From assembly GCA_963558185.1 (NCBI GenBank), contig CAUWFE010000001.1, forward strand, positions 68,029 through 132,028: a stretch of 64,000 nt of DNA. The letters run 5' to 3'. The stretch comes from an uncultured Clostridia bacterium. GTDB lineage: Bacteria; Bacillota; Clostridia; TANB77; CAG-508. Under the pieces are notes generated by a model. The model saw nothing but the letters and a program-made list of their open reading frames with translations, ran no database searches and was not told the origin of the DNA. Each line of letters opens with the position of its first letter. Within the stretch, counting starts at the first letter, position 1. Below are positions 29,546 to 32,477 of the stretch, piece after piece. The position numbers and the translations under genes are program-made.

Positions 29546-29621
29546 TAAATGTAATATGTTGAAATAACTAGAAAAATGAATTATACTATATATAGTAAGA
29601 AAAAATATGAGAGGTAAAAAA

Positions 29622-30611
29622 ATGAAAAGAAAAAATATTTTAGGAATATTATGTTTAATAATAGTTATTATAATGATTTGCATAAATATATCAAATGTAT
29701 ATGCTAATAATGAAGAAGATAACCATATAGATGATGAGGTAAATACATATTTAGGATTAAATGGAAATGCTGATTATGCAGCTGTATTTCAAAACAATAG
29801 TTCTAATGACATATCCCAAGCTTTTTTGAAATATTTTGATGTTCAGAATCTAATAAATACAAAGGCAGAAATAGATTTAGCTATAACATATTTAAAAGAG
29901 ATAGTAAATTACAAATATTGGTCTAAACCGGATCCAAATTACCCACCAAGAGTCGAATATCCTTTAGGAAGTGGAAAATTATATGGAGATATTGACCCAA
30001 TAGCATTTGACGGTAGTGTGTCTGTTGATAAAGAATATTTGAATAATAGGAAAGGCTCTTTTGGAGATTTAACAAAGATATTAATAAATGAAATGCAAGA
30101 GAAATATGAATTGAATAAAGAGCAAGAAAATCAATTAAATGAAATTGAAGCAGAAAATCAGAATGTAATAGAAAGTGATCGAAGAGAGGAAGAAATTGCA
30201 AATGAAATTTATGACAATAATTATCATCCACAAGACGAGGTAGATAAAAATCAAGATAAAGAATACACAATATCAGGTACTGTTATAAGACCAGGAGGAA
30301 GTTCAGTTAATGGTAGTGATATAACAAGCCCGGCAGATAACCCAGAAGATTATAGACCAGGAGAAATGGGAGATAATGTAACTTTAGTAAAACTAGGAGG
30401 AATAATAACAGGAGGGCTTAAAATAGTAGGAATTATTGCATCAGTATTAATATTAGTTATTTTAGGAATAAAATATATGACTGGTACAATACAAGAAAAA
30501 GCAGAATACAAAAAAACAATGATACCATATATAGTAGGAGCAGTATTTTTAGGAGCAGGAGGAGTATTAATAGAACTTATATTTAATCTAGTATCTGGTT
30601 TAACATTTTAG
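29622..30611 (+). CDS. Secreted/membrane-anchored protein with C-terminal two-helix hairpin (VirB2/TrbC-pilin-like topology)
   Basis: Signal peptide ending VYA-NNEE, an acidic coiled middle region, and a C-terminus with two TM helices separated by KYMTGTIQEKAEYKK. Confidence 0.55.
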   Translation: MKRKNILGILCLIIVIIMICINISNVYANNEEDNHIDDEVNTYLGLNGNADYAAVFQNNSSNDISQAFLKYFDVQNLINTKAEIDLAITYLKEIVNYKYWSKPDPNYPPRVEYPLGSGKLYGDIDPIAFDGSVSVDKEYLNNRKGSFGDLTKILINEMQEKYELNKEQENQLNEIEAENQNVIESDRREEEIANEIYDNNYHPQDEVDKNQDKEYTISGTVIRPGGSSVNGSDITSPADNPEDYRPGEMGDNVTLVKLGGIITGGLKIVGIIASVLILVILGIKYMTGTIQEKAEYKKTMIPYIVGAVFLGAGGVLIELIFNLVSGLTF

Positions 30612-30705: not shown

Positions 30706-30734
30706 TTAAATTTACCTTGCAAACTAATAAATAT

Positions 30735-30875
30735 ATGATATTACAGTCAAAAAACTGTAATAAAAAACAAGATTTTAAAATTTTAACTATAAAAAGGCAT
30801 AATGCCTCTTTCCCCAAAAGTTTCGCTTTGGGGATTTATTAATTTAATAGCTCTTTTCTAGTATAAATAAGTACA
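30735..30875. repeat. 141-bp direct repeat, copy A
   Basis: 134/141 identical to 32337-32477 with no indels. Contains hairpins ATTACAGT..ACTGTAAT, AGGCAT-A-ATGCCT and CCCCAAA..TTTGGGG. Confidence 0.9.
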
Positions 30876-31288
30876 TTCGAAATTAATTTACGTCCTTCAT
30901 TTGTTAAATAATATTTGTTTTTTTCGTGCCACTTTTTTTATAATTCCATCTGCAAGTTGCTGTGTTTCTTTAAAATTTTCTATATATGAAAAAGAGTTAT
31001 TATACATTTCATATTTTATATTGTTCTTATTGAGAATTTTAGAAAGATATTCTCTTCCATATCAAGACAAAGAATATGAAACTTTATTTGATAGCGTGAA
31101 AAACAAATATAAGTTACAAGAAAATTCATCTCTATCATATGAAAAAGGTATTATCAAGCTTACCAACTTTGGATTAAATTTTATTGAAATATGTATTTCT
31201 TAATTTATTTATAAATAAACAAATATATAAATTCAAATAGTGTATAACTTTATTAAGCAATTCATATAATATTAATGTCAAATTTAGT

Positions 31289-31317
31289 TTGACAAGTTAA
31301 ATATTATATGCTAAAAT
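31289..31317 (+). promoter_or_regulatory. Near-consensus promoter with extended -10
   Basis: TTGACA (31289-94), 17 nt spacer, TGc-TAAAAT (31309-17). No protein gene lies downstream on this strand. Confidence 0.65.
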
Positions 31318-31323
31318 ATATTT

Positions 31324-31556
31324 AACTTAACCCTCCACTACTTTCGTAGTGAGACGGGAGCCTAAATGATTTTGGAGAGTTCAAAGCAACTCTCCTTTTA
31401 ATATAATAGGAAAGTTCTCCAAACTTTCCTATTATATTAAAAGCTTCGCTAAACATTTCACACAAATTTTATTTCATAAAATTTGGCGAGCGAACAAAGA
31501 CGAGGCATGAAAAGTCATTAAAAATGTTGAAAATATTAATCATGCCTCTTTTGTTC
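31324..31556 (+). ncRNA. Candidate structured sRNA (about 230 nt), convergent with MazF-like gene
   Basis: Bounded by a promoter and a terminator (GAGGCATGA..TCATGCCTC plus T run, 31502-31555). Hairpins at 31336-51 and 31374-95, plus a 22-bp stem at 31395-31443 with a CUCCA loop. Family unknown. Confidence 0.45.
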
Positions 31557-32252
31557 TTATTTCGTAAAAAATTTTATAATTTGTTTATCAATCAAATCAA
31601 GTGATTCACCAGATATTTTCACATTTCTTCTAACAGTATCTTTAAAAATTCTTTGTTTGCTAATTGTTGTTATTTGATTAATTAAAGCAATGCTATCCTT
31701 CTTCATTTTAGAAATTTCGTTCTCCATTTTTTTTATATATTTTTGTTCTTTTTCTATTATATTTTGAATGTTAATAGGCACATCATCTATTTTTTCTAAT
31801 TCATATAATATTTGCTGTAACTTTTGCTTTTCTTTTTCAATTTTCTCTTTAAAAACATTATAAAGTTCTTTTCCAAGATTTACAGAAGATAAATAATAGT
31901 TTTTACCATCTTTTCTTGATGTTAATGGAATAACATTCAAAGCACCGTTTCTTGTATTATCATATTTATTTAAAACAATACAATAATGCAAGCCACCTAA
32001 TTCATTTCCAATATTAAACCCTAAGTTTACTTTTATAACATCACCACGAGAGTACATACCAGATTTTGAAATATCAAATGTTCCTTCTTCATCATGATAT
32101 TCAGCGAAATCATTTATCCAATAAGCTAATAAATCACTTTTCTTATATTCATTTAATTCTATATGTTTTAAAAAAGATAAATCTAATCTATTCAAAGAAT
32201 TATCCTTATGTATAATTGCATTATTTTTTAGTTCAATTTCATCATTATTCAT
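31557..32252 (-). CDS. Long MazF/PemK-like endoribonuclease toxin homolog with N-terminal extension and coiled-coil insert
   Basis: SRGDVIKVNLGFNIGNELGG, VIPLTSRK and SIALINQITTISKQRI align with the PemK/MazF core. ATG 32252 behind GGAAGGTGA. The track start 32294 lies upstream of the promoter. Confidence 0.68.
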   Translation of the reverse strand: MNNDEIELKNNAIIHKDNSLNRLDLSFLKHIELNEYKKSDLLAYWINDFAEYHDEEGTFDISKSGMYSRGDVIKVNLGFNIGNELGGLHYCIVLNKYDNTRNGALNVIPLTSRKDGKNYYLSSVNLGKELYNVFKEKIEKEKQKLQQILYELEKIDDVPINIQNIIEKEQKYIKKMENEISKMKKDSIALINQITTISKQRIFKDTVRRNVKISGESLDLIDKQIIKFFTK

Positions 32253-32284
32253 AGTATCACCTTCCATAATTTTGGTATGACAAT

Positions 32285-32313
32285 ATTGTATCAAACATTT
32301 GTTTAAAATGCAA
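32285..32313 (-). promoter_or_regulatory. Promoter of MazF-like gene
   Basis: On the minus strand, TTGCAT-17 nt-TACAAT, about 26 nt upstream of the start codon. Confidence 0.55.
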
Positions 32314-32336
32314 CAGCGATTGAAAAATAATTTATT

Positions 32337-32477
32337 ATGTTATTACAGTCAAAAAAATGTAATAAAAAGCAAGATTTTAAAATTTTAACTATAAAAAGGT
32401 ATAATGCCTCTTTCCACAAAAGTTTCGCTTTGAGGATTTATTAATTTAATAGCTCTTTTCTAGTATAAATAAATACA
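32337..32477. repeat. 141-bp direct repeat, copy B
   Basis: See copy A. There are 7 substitutions, several of them in hairpin arms. Confidence 0.9.

Follow-up and report, generated by a model that had tools for sequence, protein, structure and literature searches.

Results

Layout of the locus

The window, i.e. the whole stretch of 64,000 nucleotides that was analysed, harbors a gene for a long MazF/PemK-like toxin and, convergent to it, a gene for a small RNA (sRNA). Both genes possess their own promoters and are separated by a structured element. The following features were assigned:

31276..31317, plus strand: sRNA promoter, near-consensus (predicted from the sequence by a promoter scan and by conservation)
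31324-31399, plus strand: conserved sRNA of about 76 nt (model R1, covariation, conservation in relatives)
5' end of the sRNA, plus strand: 5' tail AACUUAA (UUAACUUAA in the consensus; from the consensus structure)
31331-31358, plus strand: hairpin P1 (11 bp with bulges)
31359-31373, plus strand: invariant single-stranded linker AGCCUAAAUGAUUUU (from the consensus structure)
31374-31395, plus strand: terminator hairpin P2, GGAGAGTT..AACTCTCC (8 bp)
31396-31399, plus strand: U run of the sRNA, 3' of P2
31400..31556, plus strand: structured intergenic element of about 155 nt (absent from this place in about 60 related loci; copies elsewhere)
31557..32252, minus strand: long MazF/PemK-like toxin gene (Pfam, PHROG, PDB profile, Foldseek)
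32253..32343, minus strand: toxin promoter and short 5' UTR (alignment of 51 relatives)

The promoter scan placed the -35 hexamer TTGACA of the sRNA promoter at 31289-31294 and, after a spacer of 17 nt, an extended -10 region (TGcTAAAAT) at 31309-31317, from whose position the transcription start of the sRNA was inferred. With 11 of the 12 consensus positions and a TG ahead of the -10 box, this was the top promoter-like site of the region, and an alignment of about 60 related loci revealed an almost unchanged promoter sequence. A conserved inverted repeat (TGTCAAA-N5-TTTGACA, 31276-31294) overlaps the -35 region. The same promoter had already been noticed in a preliminary description of this DNA, all listed sequence features of which could be located in the AT-rich stretch 31289-31556: the hairpin GGAGAGTT/AACTCTCC at 31374-31395, a perfect inverted repeat of 22 bp (31395-31416 / 31422-31443), and the hairpin GAGGCATGA/TCATGCCTC (31502-31510 / 31540-31548). 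The latter extends to 31555 with its T-rich tail, and a distance of 8 nt separates its end from the stop codon of the toxin gene (31557-31559). The fold predicted for 31320-31562 has an energy of -78 kcal/mol (z = -10 compared to shuffles).

Two direct repeats of 142 nt (30734-30875 and 32336-32477), which are 95% identical and 1602 nt apart, flank an islet composed of an Abi_alpha fragment, the sRNA and the toxin gene. Each of them holds small hairpins and a terminator-like hairpin, and none of the 79 related toxin loci was found to contain them. The repeats could be att-like duplications resulting from integration or a duplicated sRNA/terminator unit. For the ORF fragment at 30901-31203 (+), Pfam gave a similarity confined to the C-terminal end of Abi_alpha (E = 1.9e-4, short of the cut-off), and PADLOC gave the entry PDC-S47 (3e-6); an abortive-infection gene has probably left this remnant. 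Since this probable remnant adjoins the toxin module, a decayed defence islet is suggested. Directly upstream of the left repeat, a secreted or membrane protein of 334 aa is encoded (29607-30611, +), whose T4SS-pilin/TrbC-like C-terminal segment (Pfam E = 5e-5, below the cut-off) hints at the context of a conjugative element.

Extent and conservation of the sRNA

Using model R1, the sRNA of the window obtained a score of 104.9 bits. The preliminary description had proposed a covariation analysis of syntenic homologs. In alignment A2, which comprises 31 sequences of two clades, compensatory changes were detected in 15 of the 19 pairs, a number reached by none of 500 shuffles, and 95.7% of the cells were paired compared to 39-61% in slid controls. 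Almost every unpaired nucleotide of the sRNA proved to be invariant. Among related loci, the nucleotide identity of the sRNA amounted to 88-96%, that of the toxin gene DNA to 80-92%.

Conservation ends exactly at P2 in about 60 related genomes, where the conserved part abuts the toxin stop codon; in relatives without the insert, the end of the P2 terminator lies about 17 nt from this codon. P2 together with TTTT was itself recognised by the scan as a site resembling an intrinsic terminator. The assumption of a single transcript of about 230 nt was thus not confirmed, because only about 76 nt are conserved and these end in a terminator-like site. Likewise, the 22-bp stem and the terminator believed to be shared with the toxin gene are not parts of this RNA, since both belong to a separate inserted element.

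Two further features exist in the window but are not conserved. The 11-codon ORF (MILESSKQLSF) varies in length and lacks an ATG in other clades, and was hence rejected as a coding product. Similarly, instead of the CUCC motifs, P1 mostly contains CCCUCU, while the motif in P2 becomes CUGUUC in clade B. Their interpretation as anti-Shine-Dalgarno sequences did not hold either, as pairing with the region of the toxin translation start was not significant: RNAduplex calculations with the sRNA and the start regions of 11 loci yielded z values of -1.3 to +2.0, no better than those of shuffled RNA.

An Rfam scan, which had also been proposed, covered the whole window and disclosed no family reaching its gathering score, and for the region of interest nothing relevant was obtained at E <= 10. 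Permissive scans of 31 related loci gave nothing relevant either; among the matches were neighbouring, unrelated OLE, tmRNA, T-box, abiF and Spy779816 RNAs. The results support the existence of a non-coding RNA gene which has no Rfam match and a functional tie to a MazF-like gene. Judging from sequence comparison, the sRNA is a real non-coding RNA gene with a predicted strong promoter.

The toxin gene

The toxin comprises 231 aa when translated from the ATG at 32252, which lies behind GGAAGGTGA; an upstream TTG (32294) would give 245 aa. Its suspected relationship to MazF was confirmed by a match to the Pfam family PemK_toxin (PF02452, E = 1.1e-12), the only Pfam family found. PHROG 1412 (phrog_1412) matched residues 18-230 of the 231 residues (2.5e-42), and a PDB profile search revealed similarity to EndoA of B. 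subtilis and to other MazF chains. An AlphaFold model of medium confidence (pLDDT 69) was compared with known structures by Foldseek. The top matches were MazF of S. aureus, B. subtilis and E. coli (TMt about 0.75), and the first 24 matches were all MazF structures, while CptN appeared at rank 43 (E = 0.49). The toxin was without match in PADLOC.

According to alignment A3, the protein is composed of a conserved N-terminal domain of about 70 aa, the MazF core and a variable coiled-coil insertion. Neither the N-terminal domain, which ends in the acidic stretch YHDEE, nor the insertion could be assigned to a Pfam family, and no MazE-like similarity of the N-terminal domain was detected in Pfam or PDB profile searches. 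The MazF motif GGvRP reads GGLHY in the toxin, with a histidine that is invariant at the position of the catalytic arginine (alignment A3 and PDB profile). Because this arginine of MazF is replaced, RNase activity of the toxin is only putative.

The toxin promoter consists of the -35 hexamer TTGCAT (32313-32308) and the extended -10 region TGATACAAT (hexamer at 32290-32285), between which a conserved palindromic sequence, AAACAAATGTTT, is situated (32291-32307). In 51 aligned relatives the promoter was conserved and the 5' UTR variable; homology stopped at 32343, the right-hand end of the cassette. The palindromes in the sRNA promoter (31276-31294) and in the toxin promoter may be operators, or the scar of an inversion by which the RNA gene was flipped in the clade of the window. 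No adjacent MazE/PemI gene or other conserved ORF was found in the cassette (31241-32343), and the genes upstream of the toxin gene vary from locus to locus, including prophage loci.

Linkage of the sRNA and the toxin gene in close relatives

By scanning species-representative genomes, 79 toxin-encoding loci were obtained, all of which belong to metagenome-assembled genomes (MAGs) of uncultured gut Clostridia. Sixty-six of them extend past the 3' end of the toxin gene, whereas in the other 13 the contig stops too early. Model R2 identified exactly one sRNA copy in every one of the 66 evaluable loci, adjoining the 3' end of the toxin gene, and no copy was found elsewhere in 419 kb of related loci. 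The absence of a conserved structured region at homologous toxin loci, named in the preliminary description as a finding that would speak against its proposal, was thus encountered in none of them. Only two parts of the window (31236/31263-31399 and 31554-32343) are common to the relatives. Hence, the conserved cassette consists of the toxin gene and its promoter and of the RNA gene of about 76 nt and its promoter, and of nothing else; its flanks, which include tRNA genes and a tmRNA gene, are unrelated between loci.

The convergent layout was found in 65 of the 66 loci, the exception being L065. Among the 66 loci there was no intact toxin gene without the sRNA, and six loci with 5'-truncated toxin genes have retained the sRNA or its remnant.

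Several loci (L052, L073) contain tRNA genes, which are typical integration hot spots, at the border of the cassette. In one MAG a tmRNA gene (L063, 3821-4175, -) lies directly beside the sRNA, and in another an OLE RNA (L065, 131-725, -) was found near the toxin locus.

The inserted element

The element at 31400-31556 separates the sRNA terminator from the toxin stop codon. Its parts are the 22-bp palindrome and AAGCTTCGCTAA, a small hairpin and GGCGAGCGAACAA, and a terminator hairpin of its own (31502-31548). As the conserved sequence of about 60 relatives stops at P2 and abuts the toxin stop codon, we regard the element as an insertion. The locus L017 carries a different insert of about 125 nt at the same place. 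A copy in L052 (939-1101, -) is 72% identical, exhibits compensatory changes in all three hairpins and is likewise placed directly 3' of a terminator. Nine further copies were found in metagenome contigs (L160-L163, L165-L169), where they are preceded by unrelated genes (rplL, a tRNA synthetase gene, a transposase gene) and followed by unrelated genes, too. The viral contigs searched did not contain any copies. Members of this dispersed family (in the window 31396-31556) are about 110-155 nt long and share a long AT-rich palindrome, AAAAGCTTCGCTAAA, a small hairpin, GGCGGGCGAACAA and an own terminator; they are often placed directly 3' of another terminator, and compensatory changes distinguish the hairpins of different copies. 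There was no Rfam match for the element, a permissive scan giving only miRNA-like matches to the palindrome. Its sequence relationships indicate that the element is a dispersed intergenic structure outside the toxin-sRNA module. A MITE-like element or an sRNA gene in its own right would be conceivable.

It is very improbable that the full transcript of about 230 nt (31320-31556) is the functional unit at this locus, with a leaky P2 and a palindrome and second hairpin that contribute to function. In the window there are just four U residues behind P2, and the whole stretch folds very stably (z = -10), both of which would suit such a unit. Its 3' 155 nt, however, are the dispersed element that lies behind unrelated genes in other contigs and is missing from about 60 related toxin loci.

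Same-strand arrangement in distant clades and phages

In L065, whose toxin is 53% identical to that of the window, the RNA is encoded about 100 nt downstream on the toxin strand. A protein search was seeded with this toxin, and the contigs of seven further toxins of its clade were fetched; all seven encode the RNA 50-75 nt downstream on the same strand. In this clade (53-69% identity) the RNA thus lies 50-100 nt downstream on the toxin strand in eight of eight distinct toxins, each RNA having its own TTGACA-17-TATAAT promoter. No terminator was detected between the toxin stop codon and the RNA promoter in the loci of this clade that were examined. Most of them are prophage lysogeny modules containing a CI-like repressor or ImmA, the toxin, the RNA and an integrase. 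The same position of the RNA was observed in viral contigs: where the RNA is present, the toxin gene adjoins it and the RNA lies downstream on the same strand with its own promoter (six of six). These six toxin-adjacent matches to a 19-mer of the clade-B RNA are the real copies, while the other 58 of the 64 matches in viral contigs fall into an unrelated phage coding region and were discarded. The clade-A motif had no matches in viral contigs.

With a profile of the toxin, 281 clusters (50% identity) were matched at E <= 1e-30. Of the 150 clusters listed, almost all comprise proteins of 230-300 aa that have the same architecture. Relatives at about 40% identity are encoded by 322 viral contigs. 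In 70 of 75 evaluable viral loci of this clade, a consensus promoter follows just past the toxin stop codon on the same strand. Model R2 detected only five of 80 loci of the clade, and its RNA was recognised by promoter, architecture and covariation instead. It is 85-104 nt long and comprises two G+C hairpins, an invariant single-stranded (A)AGAAGA(C/U) and a strong terminator; 12 of 19 predicted pairs covary and often there are two tandem repeats. The linker GGGAGCCUAAAUGAUUUU of the window resembles GGGCAUAAAUGAAGACA of this clade.

Examples from cultured hosts belong to the same picture. Streptococcus phage Javan166 has the order repressor, toxin, RNA, integrase. The S. aureus phage SapYZUs7 shows the same layout, and its RNA, a perfect double repeat of AUUUCCGGUAACCAAUCCGGCU, matches the Rfam family sau-63 (RF02394; E = 5.6e-9, 51.7 bits compared to a gathering score of 100). 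In a review table, Sau-63 is given as an sRNA of about 100 nt from SaPIn2 in strain N315, validated by Northern blot and of unknown function (PMC3053349). The position of the module between repressor and integrase is the usual place of prophage-encoded defence genes.

Two Rfam matches were noticed in the vicinity. In the viral contig L187 the toxin-RNA pair is followed downstream, after about 350 nt, by an abiF RNA motif (RF03085; 2503-2539, +) whose score of 37.1 bits equals the gathering score, so that two RNA-associated Abi-type modules are found side by side. Javan166 (L250) contains a match to the S. pyogenes sRNA Spy779816 (RF02589; 2843-2929, -; 76 bits, above the gathering score) on the opposite strand between the toxin-associated RNA and the integrase gene.

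Discussion

Comparison with known systems

MazF and PemK are textbook type II toxins, which are neutralised by a protein. The toxin studied here has the MazF fold in common with the MazEF and PemIK systems, and its motifs align to B. subtilis EndoA. It differs from MazF in being twice as long, in its N-terminal domain and coiled-coil insertion and in the histidine replacing the catalytic arginine, and a MazE/PemI gene is missing here. In the literature searched, no MazF/PemK toxin with an RNA partner has been described.

Type III systems (ToxIN, CptIN, TenpIN, AbiQ/antiQ) are similar in several respects. Their toxins belong to the wider Kid/MazF/ToxN fold class, the partner is a small structured RNA, a protein antitoxin is absent, and they are carried by mobile elements or prophages in a defence-like context; moreover, distant clades of the present family contain two tandem hairpin repeats. 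On the other hand, the type III toxins are ToxN, AbiQ, CptN and TenpN, whereas Pfam assigns the present toxin to PemK/MazF. The type III repeat array is located upstream of the toxin gene and separated from it by a terminator. The RNA of the window is single-copy, convergent and driven by its own consensus promoter, and even the two-repeat RNAs of the distant clades lie downstream of the toxin gene.

A single small, non-repetitive structured RNA can neutralise a prophage or defence toxin, as in AbiF-RCd22 from a Clostridioides difficile prophage (PMC12373285) and in AvcID, where the RNA acts in trans by direct contact with the protein. However, the toxins AbiF (Abi_2/AbiD/F) and AvcID (a deaminase) are unrelated to the MazF-like toxin, and RCd22 (abiF motif RF03085), which is encoded upstream of abiF, is unrelated to the sRNA. 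The window contains no match to the abiF motif.

The pemK motif (RF02913), going by its name, is also a structured RNA associated with pemK genes, and it is classed as Cis-reg. It found no match here: neither in the window (E <= 10) nor in the related loci (11 loci at E <= 0.1, 18 at E <= 0.01 and two at E <= 1). As to sau-63, the matching RNA in SapYZUs7 is syntenic and is likewise arranged as promoter, two hairpins and terminator, whereas the RNA of the window did not match sau-63 even at E <= 10; the homology of these two would follow from synteny only.

In the type I systems txpA/RatA and bsrG/SR4, RatA acts as an antisense RNA on txpA and SR4 on bsrG. Like these systems, the clade of the window possesses a strongly promoted sRNA convergent with the toxin gene and terminators arranged back to back. 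Type I toxins are small hydrophobic peptides (<60 aa), though, while the present toxin is a soluble MazF-fold protein of 231 aa, and the 3' overlap is not conserved in the present family, the genes being parted by 155 nt in the window.

Possible modes of action

Across the clades, the sRNA is strictly linked to the toxin gene, whatever its orientation. Since it always accompanies a toxin gene lacking a protein antitoxin, the sRNA is most likely to be an RNA antitoxin that had escaped recognition; the early wording "candidate RNA antitoxin or regulator" was a fair reading of an RNA gene tied to a toxin without protein antitoxin. Our best explanation, to which we give an even chance on the basis of the comparisons made, is a two-gene module in which the long, presumably toxic MazF-fold protein is combined with an sRNA of about 76 nt that would act in trans as a protein-binding antitoxin, similar to type III systems. 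The sRNA would bind the toxin protein directly and thereby neutralise it. P1 and the invariant single-stranded, A-rich linker AAAUGAUUUU might serve as a recognition element or as a pseudo-substrate for the RNase. Owing to the predicted strong constitutive promoter, the RNA would be present in excess. When transcription of the host is shut off, e.g. by an infecting phage, the RNA would decay and the toxin might be set free, resulting in abortive infection or maintenance of the element. A protein-binding antidote fits the data because the unpaired nucleotides do not vary, changes of the RNA sequence go along with those between toxin clades, hairpin units are duplicated in distant clades and the promoter has a consensus sequence. 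The duplicated units would pair with the dimeric MazF fold. Several points speak against this explanation: the predicted fold of the toxin (in a model of medium confidence) is that of MazF and not of ToxN, AbiQ or CptN, the catalytic arginine of MazF is replaced by histidine, and in the clade of the window the RNA is single-copy and located after the toxin gene instead of forming a repeat array before it. Furthermore, the N-terminal domain with its acidic end could itself inhibit the toxin, in which case no separate antitoxin would be needed.

The preliminary description favored a 3' overlap with the toxin mRNA at a shared terminator, as in txpA/RatA. In such a model the sRNA would be a cis-encoded antisense RNA that, overlapping the mRNA at a bidirectional terminator, leads to its degradation or to a block of its expression. 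In the clade of the window the genes are indeed convergent, P2 ends close to the toxin stop codon (about 17 nt) in relatives without the insert, and toxin transcripts reading through P2 would have a 3' UTR complementary to the whole sRNA. Nevertheless, we consider this antisense mechanism quite improbable. All more distant clades that were examined (40-69% identity) encode the RNA downstream of the toxin gene and on the same strand, which deprives the txpA/RatA-like geometry of its role as a general mechanism. Inserts of 155 nt with an own terminator (window) and of about 125 nt (L017) separate RNA and toxin gene, simple cis-antisense action does not require the near-total invariance of unpaired RNA nucleotides, and the toxin is an RNase-fold protein of 231 aa, not a small membrane peptide. 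As orientation flips and inserts are tolerated, antisense pairing in cis cannot be the mechanism of the whole family, even if the convergent layout could add an antisense component in the clade of the window.

Pairing of the sRNA with the toxin mRNA in trans, or a role mainly as a promoter-terminator insulator that closes the toxin unit, is very unlikely in our view. In favor of both, the toxin stop codon and the sRNA promoter of clades B and C have no terminator between them, so that the toxin mRNA, too, ends at the sRNA terminator there. For pairing in trans, on the other hand, no conserved complementarity to the 5' UTR, the start region or the coding sequence of the toxin was found, and the 5' UTR varies even between close relatives. 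An ungapped complementarity scan of whole toxin mRNAs gave only G-U-rich matches of 9-12 nt at non-homologous positions; a long duplex of -36 kcal/mol in the toxin coding region was dropped as it showed no local excess of conservation. A mere insulator would not need an invariant linker, a covarying P1 or a consensus promoter.

There remains the reading, unlikely but somewhat less so than the preceding ones, that the sRNA is a required cofactor, a sensor or a substrate of the toxin (scaffold or cleaved decoy), which is auto-inhibited by its N-terminal domain. The linkage to the toxin and the co-variation with its clades are as strict as expected for an antitoxin; in addition, the N-terminal domain is conserved, lacks a Pfam assignment and has an acidic tail, and PHROG 1412 is labelled "antitoxin mazE-like". 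With its YHDEE stretch, this domain could be an intramolecular inhibitor making a separate antitoxin unnecessary. Pfam and PDB profiles, however, did not disclose the MazE-like similarity. An antidote also fits better than a cofactor because RNAs persist next to truncated toxin genes, while an intact toxin gene without the RNA did not occur.

Significance of the module

Pending experiments, the preferred interpretation of the sRNA as a protein-binding antitoxin would make the locus a module that resembles type III systems but has a toxin of the MazF fold. A more far-reaching conclusion, which we put forward tentatively and rate slightly below an even chance, is that a large unrecognised class of RNA antitoxins exists. 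In this class a MazF-fold nuclease (PHROG 1412, hundreds of clusters at 50% identity) would be neutralised by a dedicated sRNA instead of MazE, and its members would be widespread in Bacillota, where lysogeny modules of prophages as well as chromosomal islets would carry them; S. aureus (sau-63) and Streptococcus phages would be included. If this is true, the class would represent a prophage-encoded anti-phage or maintenance module, and MazE would have been replaced by a small RNA in a widespread branch, which would bridge type II and type III systems. A function would then be assigned to the orphan S. aureus sRNA sau-63 as well as to PHROG 1412, which is frequent in phages and whose function is uncertain, and gut Clostridia, streptococci and staphylococci would possess an additional defence or maintenance module encoded by their prophages.
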